Assembly (NCBI RefSeq): GCF_058153355.1
Contig: NZ_CM177019.1
Reading direction: 5' to 3' (one strand)
DNA length: 64,000 bases
Below, in pieces: positions 1,369 to 62,218 of the stretch. Every line of letters starts with the position of its first letter. Position 1 is the stretch's first letter. The position numbers and the translations under genes were made by a program. The notes beneath the pieces were generated by a model. It was not told the DNA's origin. It was given only the letters and a program-made list of their open reading frames with translations, and did no database searches.

Positions 1369-2433
1369 ATGAAAAACGCCACATGCTTAACTGACGATCA
1401 ACGCTGGCAATCTGTCTTAGCCCGCGACCCGAACGCCGACGGCGAATTCGTTTTCGCCGTGCGCACCACGGGTATCTTTTGCCGTCCGTCTTGCCGCGCC
1501 AGACATGCCTTGCGGGAAAATGTCTCCTTCTACGCAAATGCCAGCGAGGCACTCGCCGCCGGATTTCGCCCCTGCAAACGTTGTCAGCCAGACAAAGCCA
1601 ATCCCCGGCAACATCGCCTTGATAAAATTACCCACGCCTGCCGACTTCTGGAACAGGAAACGCCTGTAACGCTGGAAACCTTAGCCGACCAGGTGGCGAT
1701 GAGCCCGTTCCATCTGCATCGGTTGTTTAAAGCGACTACCGGAATGACGCCTAAAGCCTGGCAACAGGCCTGGCGCGCTCGCCGTTTGCGTGAATCGCTG
1801 GCGAAAGGGGAGAGCGTGACGACGTCTATTCTTAACGCCGGATTCCCCGACAGCAGCAGTTACTACCGCAAAGCTGACGAAACGCTGGGCATGACGGCTA
1901 AACAATTCCGTCATGGTGGCGAAAATCTGGCGGTGCGTTACGCGCTGGCTGATTGTGAGCTGGGCCGTTGCCTGGTGGCAGAAAGCGAGCGGGGGATTTG
2001 CGCGATATTGCTGGGCGATGATGACGCGACGCTAATCAGCGAGTTGCAGCAGATGTTTCCCGCTGCCGACAACGCGCCTGCCGATCTGCCGTTTCAGCAA
2101 CATGTGCGTGAAGTGATCGCCAGCCTCAATCAACGCGATACGCCGCTGACGTTACCGCTGGACATTCGCGGCACTGCTTTTCAGCAACAAGTCTGGCAGG
2201 CACTGCGCACGATACCTTGTGGTGAAACCGTCAGTTATCAGCAACTGGCGAACGCCATCGGCAAACCGAAAGCGGTACGGGCCGTTGCCAGCGCCTGTGC
2301 AGCCAACAAGCTCGCTATCGTAATACCCTGTCATCGGGTAGTCCGTGGTGATGGCACACTTTCCGGTTACCGCTGGGGCGTGTCGCGCAAAGCGCAACTG
2401 CTGCGCCGTGAAGCTGAAAATGAGGAGAGGTAA
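1369..2433 (+). CDS. ada: Bifunctional transcriptional regulator / O6-methylguanine-DNA methyltransferase Ada
   Basis: 354-aa ORF; N-terminal Cys cluster (CRPSCRA...CKRCQP), AraC-type HTH region, C-terminal PCHRV methyl-acceptor motif. Confidence 0.93.
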   Translation: MKNATCLTDDQRWQSVLARDPNADGEFVFAVRTTGIFCRPSCRARHALRENVSFYANASEALAAGFRPCKRCQPDKANPRQHRLDKITHACRLLEQETPVTLETLADQVAMSPFHLHRLFKATTGMTPKAWQQAWRARRLRESLAKGESVTTSILNAGFPDSSSYYRKADETLGMTAKQFRHGGENLAVRYALADCELGRCLVAESERGICAILLGDDDATLISELQQMFPAADNAPADLPFQQHVREVIASLNQRDTPLTLPLDIRGTAFQQQVWQALRTIPCGETVSYQQLANAIGKPKAVRAVASACAANKLAIVIPCHRVVRGDGTLSGYRWGVSRKAQLLRREAENEER

Positions 2434-3083
2434 TGTTGGATCTGTTTGCCGATGCTGAACCGTGGCAAGAACCACTGGCGGCTGGAGCGGTGATTTTGCG
2501 CCGTTTTGCTTTTAACGTTGCGGAACAACTGATCCGCGATATTAATGACGTTGCCAGCCAGTCGCCGTTTCGCCAGATGGTCACCCCCGGGGGATATACC
2601 ATGTCGGTGGCAATGACCAACTGTGGGCATCTGGGCTGGACGACCAATCGGCAAGGTTATCTCTATTCGCCCATTGATCCGCAAACAAATAAACCGTGGC
2701 CCGCCATGCCGCAGAGTTTTCATAATTTATGTCAACGTGCGGCGACGGCGGCGGGCTATCCAGATTTCCAGCCAGATGCTTGTCTTATCAACCGCTACGC
2801 TCCTGGCGCGAAACTGTCGCTGCATCAGGATAAAGACGAACCGGATCTGCGCGCGCCGATTGTTTCTGTTTCTCTGGGCTTACCCGCGATTTTTCAATTT
2901 GGTGGCCTGAAACGAAATGATCCGCTCAAACGTTTATTGCTGGAACATGGCGATGTGGTGGTATGGGGCGGTGAATCGCGGCTGTTTTATCACGGCATTC
3001 AACCGTTGAAAGCGGGCTTTCATCCACTCACCGCCGACTGCCGCTACAACCTGACATTCCGTCAGGCAGGTAAAAAAGAATAA
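2433..3083 (+). CDS. alkB: Fe(II)/2-oxoglutarate-dependent DNA/RNA demethylase AlkB
   Basis: 216-aa ORF; start overlaps the ada stop (taATG), the classic ada-alkB operon arrangement; HQDKDE...H motif. Confidence 0.93.
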   Translation: MLDLFADAEPWQEPLAAGAVILRRFAFNVAEQLIRDINDVASQSPFRQMVTPGGYTMSVAMTNCGHLGWTTNRQGYLYSPIDPQTNKPWPAMPQSFHNLCQRAATAAGYPDFQPDACLINRYAPGAKLSLHQDKDEPDLRAPIVSVSLGLPAIFQFGGLKRNDPLKRLLLEHGDVVVWGGESRLFYHGIQPLKAGFHPLTADCRYNLTFRQAGKKE

Positions 3084-3158
3084 AAATAAGAATTATTATT
3101 GCTGTGCGCGCGGAGATGTTTAAACTGCGGGCTGTAATTCATTGTCCGGGTTTTCTGC

Positions 3159-4802
3159 ATGGAACTTCTTGTACTTGTCTGGCGGCAGTATCGCTGGCCA
3201 TTTATCAGTGTGATGGCGCTAAGCCTCGCCAGTGCGGCATTAGGCATTGGCTTAATTGCTTTTATCAATCAGCGCCTTATCGAAATGGCGGATACCAGTC
3301 TGCTGGTATTGCCAGAATTTCTGGGTTTATTGCTGCTGTTGATGGCCGTCACTCTCGGATCGCAACTGGCGCTCACCACTTTGGGGCATCACTTCGTTTA
3401 CCGACTGCGTAGTGAATTTATCAAGCGGATTCTGGATACCCATGTCGAGCGCATTGAACAACTTGGTAGCGCCTCGTTGTTGGCGGGGTTAACCAGCGAT
3501 GTGCGCAATGTCACCATTGCTTTTGTGCGTCTGCCGGAACTGGTGCAGGGGATCATTCTCACTATCGGTTCCGCGGCGTATTTGTGGATGCTATCGGGCA
3601 AAATGTTGCTGGTAACGGCTATCTGGATGGCAGTCACCATCTGGGGTGGTTTTGTGCTGGTGGCGCGGGTGTACAAACATATGGCGACCCTGCGTGAAAC
3701 CGAAGATAAGCTGTACACGGATTTTCAAACCGTACTCGAAGGGCGCAAAGAGCTGACTCTGAACCGTGAACGCGCCGAGTATGTGTTTAACAACCTCTAC
3801 ATTCCTGATGCGCAAGAGTATCGCCATCATATTATCCGCGCAGACACCTTCCATCTTAGTGCTGTGAACTGGTCAAACATCATGATGCTGGGCGCAATCG
3901 GTCTGGTGTTCTGGATGGCGAACAGTCTCGGTTGGGCTGATACCAACGTTGCCGCGACCTATTCGTTGACGCTGTTATTCCTGCGTACGCCGCTGCTTTC
4001 GGCGGTTGGCGCATTACCGACGCTGCTGACGGCGCAGGTGGCGTTTAACAAGCTGAACAAATTCGCACTCGCGCCTTTCAAAGCAGAGTTTCCGCGTCCG
4101 CAGACGTTTCCCAACTGGCAAACGCTGGAGCTGCGCAATGTTACGTTTGCTTATCAGGATAACGCGTTTTCCGTTGGGCCGATTAACCTCACCATTAAAC
4201 GTGGCGAACTGCTGTTTCTGATTGGCGGCAACGGTAGCGGAAAATCAACACTGGCCATGTTGCTGACGGGCTTGTATCAACCACAAAGCGGCGAAATTTT
4301 GCTGGATGGCAAACCTGTCAGCGGCGAACAACCGGAAGATTATCGCAAACTGTTTTCGGCAGTGTTTACCGATGTCTGGTTGTTTGATCAACTGCTGGGG
4401 CCGGAGGGGAAACCTGCTAACCCGCAACTGGTTGAGAAGTGGCTGGCGCAGCTGAAAATGGCTCATAAGCTTGAGTTAAGCAACGGGCGTATTGTTAACC
4501 TGAAGTTATCAAAAGGGCAGAAAAAACGCGTGGCGCTGTTGCTGGCGCTGGCAGAAGAACGCGATATTATCCTGTTGGATGAATGGGCGGCAGATCAGGA
4601 CCCTCACTTCCGCCGTGAGTTTTATCAGGTGCTGCTGCCGCTGATGCAGGAGATGGGTAAAACGATTTTCGCCATCAGTCATGATGATCATTACTTTATC
4701 CACGCCGACCGTCTGCTGGAAATGCGCAACGGGCAACTTAGCGAGCTGAAGGGCGAAGAGCGCGATGCTGCTTCGCGTGATGCCGTTGCCCGGACGGCAT
4801 AA
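3159..4802 (+). CDS. yojI: Fused ABC transporter permease/ATPase (microcin J25 efflux type)
   Basis: 547-aa ORF; N-terminal TM region, Walker [13 protein letters not shown] signature LSKGQKKR, Walker B ILLDE. Confidence 0.88.
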
Positions 4803-5007
4803 TATTTCGACGCTGACCTGGCGGACTGCTGCCGCCAGGTCAATATTCTAAAAAACCCTTCGTTTCTAATAACCCTATAATTAATCAACGAAATTATAAT
4901 ATTTCTAAAATTAGAATATAATTTATAAACATTATTTAAATGTTGTTACTTAAGTGTTACCGTTGATGCCGCGCAAATCTCACCTGCAATAAAGCGACTA
5001 AAAGTAA

Positions 5008-6666
<1,659 letters not shown>

Positions 6667-54292: not shown

Positions 54293-54672
54293 TTTGATGA
54301 GCGCAAAGGGAATGACCAGTTTGTGAATGTAATTTTATGAATTTAAATGGTTTTATCTTTCAGTAGAAACCTGAAATGTTCATCAAACACTAAGGTTATT
54401 TCCTCAAGGGCAGATTATTTTCTGCCCTTTTTAGTGTTCCTGTTCTGTGCATCCAGTCACAAATTCCTCACTTTTGTAATTCAGGCATTTAATCGCATTT
54501 TGTGAGCCTGCTCAAATCTGCCCATTTTGCCTCTCTGGCGGCAATTTACTTTACGTAAAACATGCATACTATGAGCACATGTTTAAATATGAACACATGT
54601 TTAAACCGTCTTTGCAGTATCTATATTCTTGTGGATTGACAGGGTTGGTAATTTTTTACCAGAGGACGTGCT

Positions 54673-55614
54673 ATGCGCGAAAAGGATTATGTCGTAATTA
54701 TAGGCTCGGCGAATATTGATGTCGCCGGATATTCACATGAATCATTAAATTATGCGGATTCAAATCCAGGTAAAATAAAATTTACGCCTGGTGGGGTAGG
54801 GCGCAATATTGCACAAAACCTGGCGTTGCTGGGTAATAAAGCCTGGCTACTGAGCGCCGTAGGCAGTGATTTTTATGGTCAATCGCTGCTAACGCAAACC
54901 AATCAATCTGGCGTTTATGTCGATAAATGCCTGATTGTGCCGGGAGAAAATACGTCGAGCTATTTATCATTACTCGATAATACCGGTGAAATGCTGGTTG
55001 CTATAAATGACATGAATATTAGCAACGCTATTACAGCTGAATATCTCGCACAGCACCGTGAATTTATTCAGAGGGCAAAGGTCATTGTCGCGGACTGTAA
55101 TATCAGTGAAGAGGCACTGGCATGGATTCTGGATAATGCCGCCAACGTACCCGTATTTGTCGATCCTGTTTCTGCGTGGAAATGTGTCAAAGTGCGCGAC
55201 CGTCTAAATCTGATCCACACTCTCAAGCCAAACCGCCTTGAAGCGGAAACCCTGAGTGGGATTGCGTTGTCAGGGCGTGAAGATGTGGCAAAGGTTGCCG
55301 CCTGGTTCCATCAACATGGCCTGAACCGACTGGTATTGAGCATGGGCGGCGACGGCGTTTATTACAGTGATATCAGCGGTGAAAGTGGTTGGTCTGCGCC
55401 GATTAAAACCAATGTCATTAATGTTACCGGAGCGGGCGATGCCATGATGGCGGGACTTGCTTCGTGTTGGGTAGACGGAATGCCGTTTGCCGAATCTGTT
55501 CGTTTCGCACAGGGATGTTCGTCAATGGCGCTCTCCTGTGAATACACCAATAACCCCGATTTATCGATTGCCAACGTTATATCGTTAGTGGAGAACGCAG
55601 AATGTCTGAATTAA
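54673..55614 (+). CDS. psuK: Pseudouridine kinase (PfkB family)
   Basis: 313-aa ORF with ribokinase-family motifs (GGVGRNIA, GAGDAMMAG). Confidence 0.88.
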   Translation: MREKDYVVIIGSANIDVAGYSHESLNYADSNPGKIKFTPGGVGRNIAQNLALLGNKAWLLSAVGSDFYGQSLLTQTNQSGVYVDKCLIVPGENTSSYLSLLDNTGEMLVAINDMNISNAITAEYLAQHREFIQRAKVIVADCNISEEALAWILDNAANVPVFVDPVSAWKCVKVRDRLNLIHTLKPNRLEAETLSGIALSGREDVAKVAAWFHQHGLNRLVLSMGGDGVYYSDISGESGWSAPIKTNVINVTGAGDAMMAGLASCWVDGMPFAESVRFAQGCSSMALSCEYTNNPDLSIANVISLVENAECLN

Positions 55615-56540
55615 AAATTTCCCCTGAATTATTACAAATTTCCCCGGAAGTGCAGGACGCTTTAAAAAACAAAAAACCGGTTGTGGCACTGGAATCGACC
55701 ATCATTTCTCACGGGATGCCATTCCCGCAAAATGCTGAGACGGCAATTGAAGTAGAAGACACAATTCGTAAGCACGGTGCTGTACCTGCAACAATCGCCA
55801 TTATTGGTGGTGTCATGAAAGTAGGTTTGAGCAAAGAAGAAATTGAATTGTTAGGCCGTGAAGGACATAACGTGACGAAAGTCAGTCGCCGTGATTTACC
55901 TTTTGTCGTTGCCGCAGGAAAAAATGGCGCGACCACCGTTGCTTCAACGATGATTATCGCGGCACTTGCAGGAATTAAAGTATTTGCAACGGGGGGGATT
56001 GGTGGTGTGCATCGCGGTGCGGAACATACATTCGATATTTCTGCCGATTTACAGGAACTGGCAAATACTAATGTCACCGTTGTTTGTGCCGGTGCAAAAT
56101 CTATTCTCGATTTAGGATTAACAACAGAATATTTAGAAACCTTCGGTGTACCGTTAATTGGCTATCAGACAAAAGCGCTGCCTGCGTTTTTCTGCCGTAC
56201 CAGCCCATTTGAAGTCAGTATTCGCCTTGATAGTGCCACGGAAATCGCTCGTGCAATGGCAGTGAAATGGCAAACCGGTTTGAACGGCGGCCTGGTAGTG
56301 GCGAATCCGATCCCGGAGCAGTTTGCGATGCCGGAGGAATCTATCAATGCAGCCATAGATCAAGCTGTCGCCGAAGCCGAAGAGCAGGGCGTTATTGGTA
56401 AAGAAAGTACACCGTTCCTGCTGGCTCGTGTTGCTGAACTGACCGGTGGTGACAGCCTGAAATCCAACATCCAACTGGTGTTCAACAACGCCATTCTGGC
56501 GAGCGAAATTGCCAAAGAATACCAGCGTCTCGCGGGTTAA
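55602..56540 (+). CDS. psuG: Pseudouridine-5'-phosphate glycosidase
   Basis: 312-aa ORF overlapping psuK by 13 nt; indigoidine-synthase-A-like family. Confidence 0.9.
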   Translation: MSELKISPELLQISPEVQDALKNKKPVVALESTIISHGMPFPQNAETAIEVEDTIRKHGAVPATIAIIGGVMKVGLSKEEIELLGREGHNVTKVSRRDLPFVVAAGKNGATTVASTMIIAALAGIKVFATGGIGGVHRGAEHTFDISADLQELANTNVTVVCAGAKSILDLGLTTEYLETFGVPLIGYQTKALPAFFCRTSPFEVSIRLDSATEIARAMAVKWQTGLNGGLVVANPIPEQFAMPEESINAAIDQAVAEAEEQGVIGKESTPFLLARVAELTGGDSLKSNIQLVFNNAILASEIAKEYQRLAG

Positions 56541-56633
56541 TTTCTGACGGGCAGAAAGCCGTCGCCCGTACTGATCATACATACCAAAACCTGGCGCTTG
56601 CGCCGGGTTTACTGGCATGAAAGGAAAATCATT

Positions 56634-57884
56634 ATGGATATAATGAGAAGTTTGGTGGGTATGGTGGTATTGCTGGCAATTGCATTCTTATTGTCAGTGA
56701 ATAAAAAGCGTATCAGCGTACGCACGGTCGGAGCTGCATTGCTGCTGCAAATCGCTATTGGTGGCATTATGCTCTACTTCCCACCGGGAAAATGGGCAGT
56801 AGAGCAGGCGGCATTAGGCGTTCATAAAGTGATGTCTTACAGTGATGCCGGTAGCGCCTTCATTTTTGGTTCGCTGGTTGGGCCGAAAATGGATGTCCTG
56901 TTTGATGGCGCGGGCTTTATCTTCGCCTTTCGCGTACTTCCGGCAATTATTTTCGTCACTGCGCTCATCAGCCTGCTGTACTACATTGGCGTGATGGAGC
57001 TGCTAATCCGCATTCTTGGCAGTATTTTTCAGAAAGCCCTCAACATCAGCAAAATCGAATCTTTTGTTGCGGTTACCACTATTTTCCTCGGGCAAAATGA
57101 GATCCCGGCAATCGTTAAACCGTTTATCGATCGCATGAATCGCAACGAGCTATTTACGGCAATTTGTAGCGGGATGGCGTCCATTGCTGGTTCGATGATG
57201 ATTGGTTATGCCGGAATGGGCGTACCAATTGACTACCTGTTAGCGGCATCGCTGATGGCGATCCCTGGTGGTATTTTGTTTGCACGTATTCTTAGCCCAG
57301 CCACCGAGCCTTCGCAGGTGACATTTGAAAATCTGTCGTTCAGCGAAACGCCGCCAAAAAGCTTTATCGAAGCGGCGGCGAGCGGTGCGATGACCGGGTT
57401 GAAAATCGCCGCTGGTGTGGCGACGGTGGTAATGGCGTTTGTGGCAATTATTGCGCTGATCAACGGCATTATCGGCGGAATTGGTGGCTGGTTTGGTTTT
57501 TCCAATGCCTCTCTGGAAAGTATTTTTGGCTATGTGCTGGCACCGCTGGCGTGGATCATGGGCGTGGACTGGAGTGATGCCAACCTTGCGGGTAGCCTGA
57601 TTGGGCAGAAACTGGCGATTAACGAATTCGTCGCTTACCTGAGTTTCTCCCCATACCTGCAAACGGGCGGCACGCTGGAAGTGAAAACCATTGCGATTAT
57701 CTCCTTTGCGCTTTGTGGTTTTGCTAACTTTGGTTCTATCGGTGTTGTCGTTGGGGCGTTTTCGGCTATTTCGCCAAAACGCGCGCCGGAAATCGCTCAG
57801 CTTGGGTTACGGGCGTTGGCAGCAGCAACGCTTTCCAACCTGATGAGCGCGACCATTGCCGGGTTCTTTATTGGTTTAGCTTGA
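56634..57884 (+). CDS. psuT: Nucleoside (putative pseudouridine) transporter, NupC/CNT family
   Basis: 416-aa product from ATG at 56634 (MDIMRSLVGMVVLLAIAFLL...); close paralogue of the ORF at 59824-61074. Confidence 0.9.
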   Translation: MDIMRSLVGMVVLLAIAFLLSVNKKRISVRTVGAALLLQIAIGGIMLYFPPGKWAVEQAALGVHKVMSYSDAGSAFIFGSLVGPKMDVLFDGAGFIFAFRVLPAIIFVTALISLLYYIGVMELLIRILGSIFQKALNISKIESFVAVTTIFLGQNEIPAIVKPFIDRMNRNELFTAICSGMASIAGSMMIGYAGMGVPIDYLLAASLMAIPGGILFARILSPATEPSQVTFENLSFSETPPKSFIEAAASGAMTGLKIAAGVATVVMAFVAIIALINGIIGGIGGWFGFSNASLESIFGYVLAPLAWIMGVDWSDANLAGSLIGQKLAINEFVAYLSFSPYLQTGGTLEVKTIAIISFALCGFANFGSIGVVVGAFSAISPKRAPEIAQLGLRALAAATLSNLMSATIAGFFIGLA

Positions 57885-57888
57885 GTTT

Positions 57889-57929
57889 CATTGCCGGATG
57901 TACGCGCTTATTAAGCGTTGCATCCGGCA
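57889..57929. repeat. REP-like palindrome / bidirectional terminator between psuT and yeiL
   Basis: ttgccggatg-(20 nt)-catccggcaa inverted repeat. Confidence 0.45.
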
Positions 57930-57954
57930 ATCGCGTACTATTCCAGATTAATTT

Positions 57955-58614
57955 TTACTGCATCATCCCGGAGAATTTATTCTCCGGGTCCATCTCCAGC
58001 GCCAGCCCTAACAACTGCTTTCTGTTTTTAATTAAATACCCTTTCTTACTTTTAATTAATAAACCGTCGTGAATGAGTTGAGCGATCACATATAGTAAGT
58101 GACGATAAGTAACACCTAAATACTCTGCTGCCTGGGTATGTTTTTCGTGATAAAGATCACCTTCCTGCGAGAGTAATATAAATGCTGCCAGGCGATTCAC
58201 TAACGGAAATGATTGATTCTGAGTTAAAGAAACAATATTGCGATAATTTTTATGGCTTAAAGTAACGCAGAGTTTTCGTAAAAATAGCGTGTCGTTTAAT
58301 AACAGCGGACGGTAATTTTTCATGGGGAGTGCAAGGCACCAACACTCTTCAATCGCCTGTACCGCTCGTGGTTCATGATCTTTATCGATTAACTCAATCT
58401 CGCCAATAAAACAGGGTGCAGCAAAGAAATCAATCAGCGACACGCGACCATTAGCAAGCGTGGCGTAAAGCCTGGCGCGGCCTCGCGTCAGGTAAAACAG
58501 CCATGACGGCTGTTGCCCTTCCTGCACAATGTAGTCACGCGCTAAAAAATGAAACAGCCGTGTATCGGCTGAAACATCCGTTGAAAAGCAATCCTTATAC
58601 GCGGACTCACTCAT
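57955..58614 (-). CDS. yeiL: CRP/FNR-family transcriptional regulator YeiL
   Basis: ~219-aa ORF with a cNMP-binding-like domain and C-terminal HTH; start at 58614 chosen by length (alternative 58653). Confidence 0.85.
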
Positions 58615-58782
58615 CAATTGCTGCTTAAGATCATTATTGTGGATTTCTTTCACGATGTTTATCCGCTATGAGATTTCTCATATTTAGCATACGTACGCTG
58701 TTGTTAAGATTCAATCATCGGCCCGGTCGAATTTTCTTTGCTGTAGAAAAAATAACACAACTGGAAACAGAGGAAATAAACA

Positions 58783-59724
58783 ATGGAAAAGAGAAAAATT
58801 ATTCTGGATTGTGATCCGGGTCATGATGATGCTATTGCCATAATGATGGCCGCGAAACATCCGGCGATTGATTTATTAGGTATCACTATTGTGGCGGGGA
58901 ATCAAACCCTCGATAAAACATTAATTAATGGCCTGAATGTTTGCCAGAAACTGGAGATTAATGTTCCGGTTTATGCGGGGATGCCGCAACCCATTATGCG
59001 TCAACAAATCGTTGCCGATAATATTCACGGTGAAACCGGGCTGGATGGTCCGGTATTCGAACCGCTGACTCGTCAGGCAGAAAACACCCATGCGGTGAAA
59101 TATATCATCGATACCCTGATGGCAAGCGATGGCGATATCACTCTGGTGCCGGTTGGTCCGCTTTCAAATATCGCGGTGGCAATGCGTATGCAGCCCGCAA
59201 TCCTGCCGAAAATCCGTGAAATTGTACTGATGGGCGGCGCTTACGGTACTGGCAACTTCACCCCATCTGCCGAGTTCAACATTTTTGCTGACCCGGAAGC
59301 CGCACGCGTGGTGTTCACCTCCGGCGTTCCATTAGTGATGATGGGCCTCGATCTCACCAACCAGACCGTTTGCACTCCGGACGTGATTGCACGGATGGAA
59401 AGGGCAGGCGGCCCTGCCGGAGAGTTGTTCAGCGACATCATGAACTTCACTCTGAAAACCCAGTTCGAAAACTACGGTCTGGCTGGCGGCCCGGTACATG
59501 ACGCCACCTGTATCGGTTATCTGATTAACCCCGATGGTATTAAAACCTAGGAGATGTACGTCGAAGTGGACGTCAACAGTGGCCCTTGTTACGGGCGTAC
59601 CGTCTGCGACGAGCTGGGCGTTCTTGGCAAGCCCGCCAATACCAAAGTCGGCATCACTATTGATACCGACTGGTTCTGGGGATTAGTCGAAGAGTGCGTG
59701 CGCGGCTACATCAAAACCCATTAA
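58783..59724 (+). pseudogene. rihB: Pyrimidine-specific ribonucleoside hydrolase RihB interrupted by an in-frame amber (TAG) codon at 59548-59550
   Basis: N-terminal DPGHDDAIA hydrolase motif; the reading frame continues uninterrupted after the TAG for 58 more codons ([57 protein letters not shown]), giving the expected 313 codons in total. Confidence 0.8.
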
Positions 59725-59823
59725 GTGTTGATAACAAGCCGGGACAGTATCGCAAGATGCAGGCCCGGCTATTTCTGATGGGCAGAAAGCCGTCGCCCAA
59801 AATGACATGAAGAGATAATAACT

Positions 59824-61074
59824 ATGGATGTCATGAGAAGTGTTCTGGGAATGGTGGTACTGCTGGCAATTGCGTTTTTGCTGTCAGTAAACAAGAAGAA
59901 GATCAGCCTGCGTACCGTTGGCGCGGCGTTAGTGTTACAGGTCGTGATTGGCGGCATTATGCTTTGGTTACCGCCAGGGCGTTGGGTCGCAGAAAAAGTC
60001 GCTTTTGGCGTGCATAAAGTGATGGCGTACAGCGACGCAGGTAGCGCATTTATCTTCGGTTCTCTGGTTGGACCGAAAATGGACACCTTATTTGATGGCG
60101 CAGGATTTATCTTTGGTTTCAGGGTATTACCGGCAATTATCTTCGTTACAGCACTGGTGAGTATTCTCTACTACATCGGTGTGATGGGGATCTTAATTCG
60201 CATTCTCGGCGGTATATTCCAGAAAGCGTTAAATATCAGCAAGATCGAGTCATTCGTCGCGGTCACTACCATTTTCCTCGGGCAAAACGAAATTCCGGCA
60301 ATCGTCAAACCCTTTATCGATCGTCTGAATCGCAATGAATTATTTACAGCGATTTGTAGCGGGATGGCCTCGATTGCTGGTTCGACAATGATTGGTTACG
60401 CCGCACTGGGCGTACCAGTGGAGTATTTGCTGGCGGCATCGTTAATGGCGATTCCCGGCGGGATCTTGTTTGCCCGCCTGTTAAGCCCGGCTACGGAATC
60501 TTCTCAGGTTTCCTTTAATAACCTCTCTTTCACCGAAACACCGCCAAAGAGCATTATTGAAGCCGCTGCGACAGGGGCAATGACCGGGCTGAAAATCGCT
60601 GCGGGTGTGGCGACAGTGGTGATGGCATTTGTCGCCATCATTGCGTTGATCAACGGTGTTATCGGCGGCGTTGGTGGCTGGTTTGGTTTTGAACATGCCT
60701 CGCTGGAGTCCATTTTAGGTTACCTGCTGGCCCCGCTGGCGTGGGTGATGGGTGTTGACTGGAGTGATGCGAATCTTGCCGGAAGTTTGATTGGACAGAA
60801 GCTGGCGATTAATGAATTTGTCGCTTACCTCAATTTCTCACCCTATCTGCAAACGGCTGGCACTCTCGATGCTAAAACCGTGGCGATTATTTCCTTCGCG
60901 TTGTGCGGTTTCGCTAACTTTGGTTCTATCGAGGTGGTGGTTGGTGCATTTTCTGCGGTTGCGCCACACCGTGCGCCGGAAATCGCCCAGCTTGGTTTAC
61001 GCGCGCTGGCGGCGGCGACACTTTCTAACCTGATGAGTGCGACCATTGCCGGGTTCTTTATTGGCTTAGCGTAG
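59824..61074 (+). CDS. nupX: Nucleoside transporter NupX (NupC/CNT family)
   Basis: 416-aa ORF (MDVMRSVLGMVVLLAIAFLL...), highly similar to psuT along its whole length. Confidence 0.9.
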   Translation: MDVMRSVLGMVVLLAIAFLLSVNKKKISLRTVGAALVLQVVIGGIMLWLPPGRWVAEKVAFGVHKVMAYSDAGSAFIFGSLVGPKMDTLFDGAGFIFGFRVLPAIIFVTALVSILYYIGVMGILIRILGGIFQKALNISKIESFVAVTTIFLGQNEIPAIVKPFIDRLNRNELFTAICSGMASIAGSTMIGYAALGVPVEYLLAASLMAIPGGILFARLLSPATESSQVSFNNLSFTETPPKSIIEAAATGAMTGLKIAAGVATVVMAFVAIIALINGVIGGVGGWFGFEHASLESILGYLLAPLAWVMGVDWSDANLAGSLIGQKLAINEFVAYLNFSPYLQTAGTLDAKTVAIISFALCGFANFGSIEVVVGAFSAVAPHRAPEIAQLGLRALAAATLSNLMSATIAGFFIGLA

Positions 61075-61129
61075 TGCGCGAGTTATGAGCCGGATAAGAC
61101 GCGGTCAAGCGTCGAATCCGGCAAGATTG

Positions 61130-62218
61130 TTACACCATCGGCACTAATGAAAGCGCGTTATCGGCAGACAGGGTAGGGTTGTTTAAGCTGCCGCTGGCGC
61201 GTGAAATTGCCGCGCAGGCCATAGCAAAACGGGCACTATCACGGAAACTGCTTCCTTCCAGAAAGCTATACACCAGGCCCGCCATAAAACCATCGTCAGC
61301 ACCAAAACTGTCTACCGTCTTATGCGCTGGCGCAGTCAGCAAAAATTGTTCGCCATCCTTTTGGCTGCAATAAACAGACTCATCGGGCAAATAAACAAAC
61401 AGTTGCTGAACGCCTTGCTGATGCAACGCATTCACTGCGGCATTACGATCAGCATCGCGGGTTATCGGCTGGCCCCATAAAATTTCCAGCTCCGGCAAAG
61501 TGGGTTTCAGAGTGTGAATATGCGCCAGCCAGTGTTTGATTTTGCCCGCTTTGAATTCTGAAACGGTATCGACAAACACCGGGATTTCATCAGCGAGGGT
61601 AAAGACCCACTCCAGCGCCTCGGCTGTCAGGTTGCAATCAGCCAGTACCACGCCCGCATGACGAAGTAAATCGCGCGACCCGTTCAGTAGTTGCGGTGTC
61701 AACTGATCCAGCAGATGGGTATCGTTAATCGCCAGCACGGTTTGATCGTCTCGATTGGCAATTGCCAGATACGTCGATGTGCTTTGACCATGTAAACGAA
61801 CGCAGCCGGAGACATTCACTCCGGCGCGGCGCGTTTCTTCCAGGAGCATTTCGCCATAAAAGTCATCGCCAATCACTGAAAGCAAATGGACGTCGCGGCC
61901 TAACAGCGCCAGATTGTGGGCGATATTGCGTCCAACGCCGCCTGCCGAGCAATGAATTGTACCGGGATGAGAAGCCGCTTGCGGGTAACGGATATCCGCC
62001 ATCCCGCGAATATCCATATTGATTGTCCCCACCACTACGCAGTATTCCTGCTCGGTGAGAATGTAACCTTTGCCTTTAATCCGACCTTTGCGCATTAAAT
62101 CCATAATATGCGCTGCAACACGCGAACGGCTGATTTGCAGCATATCCGCAATTTCGTTCTGCTGAATCAGCGGGTTACGCCTTAATATTGCAAGGATCTC
62201 CTTCTCCCGGTTATTCAT
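61130..62218 (-). CDS. yeiI: Sugar kinase with N-terminal HTH domain, YeiI (PfkB family)
   Basis: 362-aa ORF; N-terminal wHTH (EILAILRRNPLIQQNEIADMLQISRSRV) plus ribokinase-like domain. Confidence 0.88.
   Translation of the reverse strand: MNNREKEILAILRRNPLIQQNEIADMLQISRSRVAAHIMDLMRKGRIKGKGYILTEQEYCVVVGTINMDIRGMADIRYPQAASHPGTIHCSAGGVGRNIAHNLALLGRDVHLLSVIGDDFYGEMLLEETRRAGVNVSGCVRLHGQSTSTYLAIANRDDQTVLAINDTHLLDQLTPQLLNGSRDLLRHAGVVLADCNLTAEALEWVFTLADEIPVFVDTVSEFKAGKIKHWLAHIHTLKPTLPELEILWGQPITRDADRNAAVNALHQQGVQQLFVYLPDESVYCSQKDGEQFLLTAPAHKTVDSFGADDGFMAGLVYSFLEGSSFRDSARFAMACAAISRASGSLNNPTLSADNALSLVPMV

Follow-up and report, generated by a model that had tools for sequence, protein, structure and literature searches.

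In a 64,000-nucleotide (nt) stretch of contig NZ_CM177019.1 (NCBI RefSeq assembly GCF_058153355.1), hereafter the window, the paralogous nucleoside transporter genes psuT and nupX are both preceded by a short stem-loop, hp1, which, judging from its conservation and its substitution pattern across genera, is a conserved, covarying RNA hairpin of no described family. We are fairly confident that hp1 is a selected and functional nucleic-acid hairpin of the leader, and it is probably an undescribed control element for transporter expression. How it might work is a more tentative matter. The proposal that hp1 is a cis-regulatory RNA hairpin whose loop is read by a factor, thereby setting transporter expression, is one that we hold with somewhat less than even confidence, and when the functional hairpin and this mechanism are judged as one, with the greater weight on the mechanism, our confidence comes near to even without quite reaching it. 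That hp1 acts as plus-strand RNA, that a factor binds its loop, and that a step of expression is thereby controlled are all things that we infer.

An earlier note on this DNA had reported a 27-nt motif, TTTCTGAYGGGCAGAAAGCCGTCGCCC, on the plus strand at 56541-56567 (psuT side) and 59772-59798 (nupX side), and the two copies do differ at a single base (26 of 27 identical). When this pattern was matched against the window with up to three mismatches allowed, these were the only two matches, both on the plus strand, with 0 expected from 100 shuffles. The paralogues themselves, as their divergence indicates, are old: PsuT and NupX are 87% identical over their full length without gaps, but at the DNA level the genes are 79% identical, with a longest exact run of 26 nt in the coding alignment, 53% identity at third codon positions, and 46.8% identity at fourfold-degenerate sites (Jukes-Cantor distance 0.93). 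The description of the pair as near-identical in long stretches is thus apt for the proteins and generous for the DNA. Only 18 of the 1,222 27-nt windows of the coding alignment reach 26/27 identity, and the two leaders are scarcely alignable outside the motif. Because the paralogues are so old, no neutral non-coding 27-mer would still be identical at 26 of 27 positions; the identity exceeds neutral expectation, and the observation is therefore real and in need of an explanation. The two copies also differ in placement, as the 27-mer follows the stop codon of psuG immediately and that of rihB at a distance of 47 nt, and its distance to the ATG is 41 nt longer for psuT than for nupX.

The idea of a leader element conserved in both paralogues stands, but its true unit is not the 27-mer. 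The first six nucleotides of the latter (TTTCTG) are conserved solely in Escherichia and its closest relatives and lie outside the conserved unit, and the stem of hp1 reaches 1-2 nt past the 3' end of the motif. The unit is instead a 23-nt stem-loop with the stem N-Y-GGGC/GCCC-R-N and the 11-nt loop AGNNNGCNGUC. The psuT copy (56547-56569, plus strand), which begins 7 nt after the psuG stop codon and scores 42.2 bits with our covariance model R1, pairs ACGGGC with GCCCGU (56547-56552 with 56564-56569) around the 11-nt loop AGAAAGCCGUC. The nupX copy (59778-59800, plus strand; 38.9 bits with R1), delimited by its fold, the alignment, and pair counts, carries an identical 11-nt loop on the stem (A)UGGGC/GCCCA(A), in which the outermost pair is A.A, leaving 5 base pairs (bp; 59779-59783 with 59795-59799). 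The lone C/T difference between the window copies is compensated, with C-G (56548/56568) in psuT corresponding to U-A (59779/59799) in nupX.

The same picture emerges across genera. In an alignment of 50 distinct 35-nt leader segments (alignment A1), the consensus is N-Y-G-G-G-C-A-G-N-N-N-G-C-N-G-T-C-G-C-C-C-R-N, where columns G10, G18, G21, T22, G24, and C26 are invariant and columns G9, G11, C12, A13, G14, C19, C25, and C27 are at least 90% conserved. The stem is formed by columns 7-12 with 24-29; 91% of its cells are standard pairs, and 4 of its 6 pairs show changes on both sides. None of 500 shuffles attained the observed pairing, the double-change count, or the covariation score, and sliding the 3' partner lowered the pairing to 29-53%. 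For instance, pair 8-28 occurs as C-G, as U-A, and as the intermediate U.G in different genera, and pair 7-29 as A-U and G-C, while in the GC core G-C pairs have been replaced on both sides, by A-U in Leclercia and by U-A in Enterobacter sichuanensis. In a distant metagenome-assembled genome, the stem has become GAGC/GCUC and the loop still has 11 nt. The covariation across genera that the earlier note had envisaged is therefore present in the stem, and of the two possibilities that it had proposed, a shared cis-regulatory RNA or a shared protein-binding site, this covariation favors the RNA hairpin and speaks less for a protein-binding DNA site.

The loop is constrained in a different manner. 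Seven of its bases are invariant or reach at least 90% identity (columns 13, 14, 18, 19, 21, 22, and 23), columns 15-17 and 20 are free to vary, and the loop as a whole is not palindromic. In Escherichia, the two loops (56553-56563 and 59784-59794 in the window) agree at the four free positions (AAA and C; AGAAAGCCGUC), with bases that resemble those of psuT-type relatives and not those of nupX-type ones, while the flanks of the nupX copy remain nupX-type. These shared states could reflect a very short conversion tract or co-selection.

Among complete E. coli genomes, 5,424 of 5,426 contain the motif; the median number of places per genome is two and the highest three, so it is not a dispersed repeat. 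For the wider distribution, a NupX scan with one genome per species yielded 60 loci, which were annotated with the window proteins and whose leaders were read. Around 50 different leaders contain the hp1 core, and they come from over 15 Enterobacterales genera, including Escherichia, Citrobacter, Klebsiella, Enterobacter, Kosakonia, Phytobacter, Leclercia, Kluyvera, Buttiauxella, Superficieibacter, Pseudocitrobacter, Entomohabitans, Salmonella enterica subsp. arizonae, Cedecea, Pantoea, and Ewingella. In every one of these leaders, the coding strand carries the core, which separates psuG from a psuT-type gene or rihB from a nupX-type gene. By a binomial estimate, the chance of matching at least 12 of the 15 core positions within 170 nt is about 0.002 per leader. 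The motif is thus found upstream of orthologues of both transporter types in other species. Because the core precedes both types across more than 15 genera, the leader element is, on this distribution, at least as old as the psuT/nupX duplication, and both lineages have retained it. The psuKGT (with a convergent yeiI) and yeiL/rihB-nupX operons occupy separate loci in most genera, and the nested arrangement of the window was found only in Escherichia, one Citrobacter amalonaticus, Entomohabitans, and one Phytobacter. Among the leaders that were read, hp1 is absent or unrecognizable in Yersinia, one Pasteurellaceae genome, and Affinibrenneria, and Izhakiella, Pluralibacter, and one metagenome-assembled genome retain a hairpin whose loop is different. 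A search with model R1 over 436 kb, comprising the window and the loci, found no further copies. A metagenome scan with GGGCAGNNNGCNGTCGCCC returned 120 matches, of which 118 had no psu, rih, or nupX context and came mostly from GC-rich contigs, so that we take them as chance matches; the remaining two were Escherichia loci, and no new gene context appeared. Nor did the loci reveal an additional conserved neighboring gene as a candidate partner, as the flanks vary between genera. The sequence ATCATTATGGAYRTNATGAGA is a possible anchor for gathering psuT and nupX leaders independently of the motif.

Several known kinds of element were considered as identities for hp1 and set aside. A covariance search against Rfam 15, permissive thresholds included, gave no match that covers hp1. 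It is not an intrinsic terminator, since the sequence after it, GUACUGAU or AAAAUGAC, contains no U tract, and the terminator scan was negative. By its fold it does not qualify as a riboswitch, being a single hairpin with no conserved pseudoknot or alternative pairing. A 5' helix or pseudoknot pairing TTTCTG with CAGAAA is perfect in Escherichia and only 52% paired across genera, and the minimum-energy fold in Escherichia, GACGG/CCGUC, needs a lineage-specific C at loop position 20 and is not conserved. Comparison of the loop with downstream segments gave no consistent partner of at least 5 bp across the leaders, nor is there conservation of a long-range helix, good in Klebsiella (GAUAUC/GAUAUC), in which the block 3' of hp1 would pair with the nucleotides separating the Shine-Dalgarno sequence from the AUG. 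Period-3 variation raised the possibility of a hidden coding frame, x-G-Q-x-A-V-A, but this has internal stops in 5 species and usually lacks a start codon, and the other two frames through hp1 are no better as a leader peptide. As a palindromic operator, hp1 would be symmetric in just its outer 4-6 bp, where the outer positions covary, and there is no promoter-like site adjacent to it. Its median of two places per genome and the lack of any other copy in the 436 kb do not fit a repetitive extragenic palindromic (REP) element, a bacterial interspersed mosaic element (BIME), or another dispersed repeat. As an operon polarity suppressor (ops) element of the kind used by RfaH, its best register agrees with GGCGGTAGnnTG at 8 of 12 positions (a weak comparison), with mismatches at positions 7, 10, and 11. 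Finally, the elements conserved in the promoter regions of psuK and rihB show no similarity to hp1.

The rest of the leader differs between the two types. Leaders of the psuT type are conserved across about 100 nt (alignment A2). In the window, hp1 is followed there by a spacer and a CA-rich block, ACUGAUCAUACAUACCAAAA (56570-56589, plus strand; consensus AUAUCAGACAUACCAAAA), a block that is common to psuT-type leaders and to many nupX-type leaders of other genera and is mostly deleted in the Escherichia nupX leader. Next comes hp2 (56580-56619, plus strand), present in the window only in the psuT leader, a long irregular hairpin with the core AAACCUGGCG-CUUG-CGCCGGGUUU (56587-56610) and the outer pairs CAU/AUG and CCA/UGG, whose base ends just 5' of the Shine-Dalgarno sequence. 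Pseudocitrobacter has U-A in place of a conserved U.G wobble in hp2, Leclercia and E. sichuanensis have C-G, and G.U variants occur in two genomes; since such variants pair in plus-strand RNA only, this part of the psuT leader is, on that pattern, selected as RNA. It resembles a terminator in its stable, conserved, GC-rich stem, but only 3-4 U residues follow, fewer than the 5 T in 8 required by the terminator scan, and these U residues are able to pair with a conserved A tract. The Rfam matches in the leader concern hp2 only, as a terminator stem, and are far below threshold (isrJ at 19.5 bits against a threshold of 37; rnk leader, FsrA, and CC0196). Because a clear intrinsic terminator in the Pasteurellaceae locus and a hairpin followed by UUUU in Yersinia occupy the same position between the enzyme and transporter genes as hp2, some attenuation at this point seems to be recurrent.

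Most nupX-type leaders have lost hp2; several retain the CA-rich block, and the Escherichia nupX leader retains little besides hp1, which, among the leaders compared, is thus the sole element common to all. With hp2 folded, hp1 lies around 23-46 nt from the start codon in both leader types. Directly 5' of the nupX copy of hp1, there is a further hairpin, AGCCGGG...CCCGGCU followed by AUUUCUGA (59737-59770, plus strand), and in other genera this rihB-distal position is occupied by unrelated hairpins. The start codons themselves also fall in potential structures. That of psuT lies inside a local hairpin, CAUUAU-GGAU-AUAAUG (56628-56648), which spans the AUG and codon 4 and whose sequence is conserved, synonymous sites included; in the nupX start region (59802-59835), AUGACAU could pair with AUGUCAU, enclosing the Shine-Dalgarno sequence and the AUG in the loop. 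Moreover, psuG and psuT share a reading frame, with 31 stop-free codons between the psuG TAA and the psuT ATG (56538-56636), which is probably a matter of chance, since other genera differ in both frame and stops.

We propose that hp1 would be a cis-acting RNA stem-loop in the untranslated stretch between enzyme and transporter genes (psuG or rihB to psuT or nupX), which would already have been part of the ancestral transporter leader and have been retained by both paralogues. A trans-acting factor, most likely a protein, would read the loop bases A13, G14, G18, C19, G21, U22, and C23, and the stem would just have to pair; we suggest a loop-specific partner because the stem seems to need only pairing whereas the asymmetric loop bases are fixed across genera. 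Binding of this factor would set the ratio of transporter to upstream enzyme without involving the promoter regulators of either operon. It could do so by altering the access of ribosomes, as hp1 is close to the start codon once hp2 is folded, or, in psuT-type leaders, by altering read-through of the terminator-like hp2.

Several points weigh against this proposal. Since the members of alignment A1 were picked by a core match, the invariance of the core is partly a matter of construction, and the shuffle control takes no account of phylogeny. Within hp1 itself, G.U and A.C exceptions number around 3 each, so they do not tell the selected strand apart. There is no alternative pairing of hp1 with hp2, the Shine-Dalgarno sequence, or the start codon, and thus no visible switch, and the distance from hp1 to the start codon varies between 25 and 68 nt. 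In addition, literature searches by gene names and sequence returned nothing on this leader element.

Among other explanations, hp1 could be passive, a processing or stability hairpin or a barrier between cistrons that, together with hp2, fixes a lower and uncoupled level of the transporter with no factor involved. This would suit its intercistronic position at all loci, the recurrence of a hairpin or terminator-like structure where hp1 is missing, as with the Pasteurellaceae terminator and the Yersinia hairpin, and the lack of a switch-like alternative structure. Nevertheless, a purely structural role would not need seven loop bases conserved across more than 15 genera while the stem covaries, and the hairpins between rihB and hp1, which are unrelated between genera, show how passive hairpins evolve at this very locus; we therefore regard a passive hp1 as unlikely. 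We find it decidedly unlikely that hp1 is an intra-operon DNA site (GGGC-N11-GCCC) for a roadblock repressor or another transcription factor, such as YeiI or YeiL. The GGGC...GCCC core is indeed an inverted repeat, the balance of exceptions leaves either strand eligible, and the loci encode two DNA-binding proteins. However, the inner 11 nt are conserved and yet asymmetric, and the paired double substitutions in the GC core (Leclercia, E. sichuanensis, and the distant metagenome-assembled genome) suit base pairing better. The promoter palindromes of the two operons are different sequences, hp1 is intact in E. albertii at a locus with no yeiL, and no promoter-like site lies beside it.

A covarying stem with conserved unpaired bases is also the pattern of a riboswitch, and hp1 might be the core of a miniature one for a pyrimidine nucleoside or a breakdown product, with hp2 as the platform for transcriptional control or the ribosome-binding region for translational control. 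Its position directly 5' of transporter genes, the terminator-like hairpin downstream in psuT leaders, and the lack of a regulator gene consistently linked to both contexts would be in keeping with this, but a single stem of 5-6 bp with an 11-nt loop is below the size of nearly all known aptamers, neither a conserved pseudoknot or tail pairing nor an Rfam match was found, and the spacing to hp2 and to the start codon is variable, all of which makes this an improbable account. It is highly improbable that the element works on the non-template strand as a pausing or recruitment signal similar to ops, with G-C-N-G-T-N-G being read by an RfaH-type NusG paralogue. Taking ops to be GGCGGTAGnnTG, its G2, C3, G5, T6, and G8 would align with the invariant G18, C19, G21, T22, and G24 of hp1, which is no more than a lead, and in psuT-type copies G18...C27-G28 fits the pause pattern G(-10) Y(-1) G(+1). 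Against this stand 3-4 mismatches to ops, with positions 7, 10, and 11 among them, the A at G+1 in nupX-type copies, and a covarying stem that would be left unexplained; the RfaH regulon is not known to include the psuT and nupX operons. Lastly, the 26/27 identity might be a functionless by-product of recent gene conversion between neighboring paralogues, a suggestion prompted by the psuT-like states (AAA and C) that the Escherichia copies share at free loop positions. This we find hardly credible, since the core is conserved where the operons are unlinked and at fetched loci with one operon only, and since the nupX flanks and the 8-28 pair are still nupX-type, so that conversion would explain four shared loop positions at most.

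The proposed loop-read hairpin has partial counterparts in known systems. In the pyr operon of Bacillus, PyrR-dependent attenuators are conserved-loop hairpins in untranslated regions, one of them intercistronic and directly before the pyrimidine transporter gene pyrP, that are followed by a terminator, so that RNA-level control acts on a transporter or pathway gene within an operon. Similarly, hp1 is a conserved-loop hairpin in an intercistronic position before a nucleoside transporter gene, with a terminator-like hairpin downstream in psuT-type leaders. However, it has no sequence resemblance to the PyrR binding loop, no antiterminator overlaps hp2, hp2 has only 3-4 U, and most nupX-type leaders lack hp2; E. 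coli, moreover, is not known to have a PyrR attenuation protein. The boxB hairpin of the lambda nut sites, with its 5-nt purine loop and adjacent boxA, offers another likeness, as a short hairpin with a GC stem at a variable distance before terminators that acts in processive antitermination and whose loop is read by a protein, as we propose for hp1. In this case, the differences are the 11-nt loop and the lack of a boxA-like block in hp1, and an N-type phage protein is not implied.

Other comparisons go less far. Intrinsic terminators and intra-operon attenuators share with hp2 a GC-rich stem followed by U, but hp1 has no U tract and hp2 has only UUU(U) and was not flagged by the scan. The preQ1-I riboswitch, one of the smallest aptamers, is similar to hp1 in its stem of about 5 bp, its loop of about 11 nt, the A-rich stretch downstream, and its location before transport or salvage genes. 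Nonetheless, the loop of preQ1-I must form a pseudoknot with the 3' tail, whereas hp1 has no conserved loop-tail pairing and no Rfam match. REP elements and BIMEs, like hp1, are GC-rich imperfect palindromes in intergenic regions of enterobacterial operons, but hp1 occurs twice per genome, lacks the REP sequence, and is bound to one gene family.

If hp1 has the role that we suggest, it would mark a second, post-transcriptional layer of control on psuKGT and rihB-nupX, which are poorly understood uptake systems. The intergenic regions of E. coli have often been searched for structured RNAs, yet hp1 falls outside every Rfam 15 family. A specific binding partner, if it exists, would add a new regulator to the pyrimidine salvage of enteric bacteria. 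It is quite unlikely that hp1 is the sensing part of a new and unusually small RNA switch whose ligand is a pyrimidine-nucleoside metabolite or a dedicated RNA-binding regulator; in that case, E. coli and most Enterobacteriaceae would use a small RNA switch to control how much pseudouridine and other pyrimidine nucleosides they take up, independently of promoter control of the CRP, YeiL, and YeiI types. As hp1 is short, present in K-12, and amenable to clear stem, loop, and compensatory mutants, its function is directly testable. The role and substrate of PsuT have been deduced only from its operon, and uridine and cytidine are weakly transported by NupX (PMC11241209). One transcriptome study grouped psuT and psuG with CRP-type carbohydrate genes (PMC12803456), and a sigma-S peak in SELEX (systematic evolution of ligands by exponential enrichment) was located within psuG (PMC5493296). 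The element would also have practical relevance for pseudouridine production strains, in the engineering of which psuT, psuG, and psuK have been handled (PMC13090712, PMC10552469).

At the promoters, the two operons carry different elements. Upstream of psuK, there is a CRP-like TGTGA-N6-TCA site (54501-54516) and, at around 54575-54606, a set of ACACATGTTT repeats with two copies of (A)CACATGTTT spaced by about 8 nt; both features are conserved from Escherichia to Klebsiella, and a related pair occurs in Yersinia. They likely reflect promoter-level control of psuKGT, possibly with YeiI as the regulator. Between yeiL and rihB, there is a perfect palindrome, TATGAGATTTCTCATA (58667-58682), with the 5-N4-5 geometry typical of sites for the CRP/FNR family, and its core GAGATTTCTCAT is identical in 15 of 16 compared loci from around 10 named genera. 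Because of this geometry, TATGAGATTTCTCATA is a good candidate for the YeiL operator. YeiL and YeiI probably act at these promoter sites. Different promoter elements combined with a common hp1 argue that hp1 is tied to the transporter cistron and not to an operon regulator. The yeiI gene, which encodes a winged-helix domain fused to a PfkB kinase, is convergent to psuT in nearly all psuKGT loci, and in Yersinia the first gene of the psu operon (2806-3924 of locus L045; 372 amino acids, aa) is itself such a fusion, with an N-terminal segment similar to a helix-turn-helix (HTH). YeiI may be a kinase-derived regulator of pseudouridine catabolism.

The gene order of the window, psuK, psuG, psuT, yeiL (opposite strand), rihB, nupX, and yeiI (opposite strand), is that of the K-12 annotation. 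The pseudouridine-5'-phosphate glycosidase gene psuG (55602-56540, plus strand; Pfam Indigoidine_A) lies 5' of hp1 in psuT-type loci, and the pyrimidine nucleoside hydrolase gene rihB (58783-59724, plus strand) takes this position in nupX-type loci. As previously described, psuT (56634-57884) and nupX (59824-61074) encode proteins of 416 aa each in the same orientation, here on the plus strand, and they are separated by 1,939 bp that include rihB and the minus-strand gene yeiL. The Pfam domains Nucleos_tra2_N, Gate, and Nucleos_tra2_C each score above the cut-off in PsuT, which places it in the NupC/CNT family, to which its paralogue NupX also belongs, and the RefSeq annotation of both genes agrees. 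The yeiL gene (57955-58653), divergent from rihB-nupX, encodes a CRP/FNR-family regulator (Pfam cNMP_binding and HTH_Crp_2), and yeiI (61130-62218, minus strand) encodes a fusion of a winged-helix domain (HTH_24) with a PfkB kinase. In the window strain, rihB has an in-frame amber TAG at 59548-59550, where K-12 and four other Escherichia lineages have CAG, and it therefore looks like a pseudogene, while the downstream nupX is intact. In its best-aligned segments, the region 55600-62200 is around 91-94% identical to K-12, E. whittamii, two other Escherichia species, and E. coli SCPM-O-B-8794, and an identity of at least 99% to the window at the psuG-psuT junction is reached by only 14 of 5,408 matching records from complete E. 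coli genomes. Because of these values, we place the window in what is, by this measure, an uncommon Escherichia lineage.

The earlier note had also suggested that recombination between psuT and nupX could delete yeiL and rihB, but none of the three cases that we examined contains a hybrid psuT/nupX gene. E. albertii lacks yeiL-rihB-nupX, its transporter gene resembles psuT from end to end, and the junction lies in a REP-like element. Both the window and K-12 carry REP-like palindromes 3' of psuT (57893-57932 in the window) and 3' of nupX (61088-61123), and in E. albertii (around 3454-3510 of locus L029) a single REP-like element joins the psuT-side and nupX-side flanks, so the presence or absence of the yeiL-rihB-nupX cassette looks to be bounded by REP-like elements. 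In E. coli 13C1065T (4400-5954 of locus L182), a truncated psuG and a truncated rihB flank an IS1A, and the locus has neither psuT nor yeiL; owing to this IS1-associated deletion, just one copy of the motif remains there. In Escherichia sp. MOD1-EC7003 (1930-3140 of locus L002), psuK is gone, psuG lacks its 5' part, and psuT has an internal loss of about 1 kb, which is most of the gene, while the leader with hp1 and hp2 is retained intact, with one change, at a free loop position.

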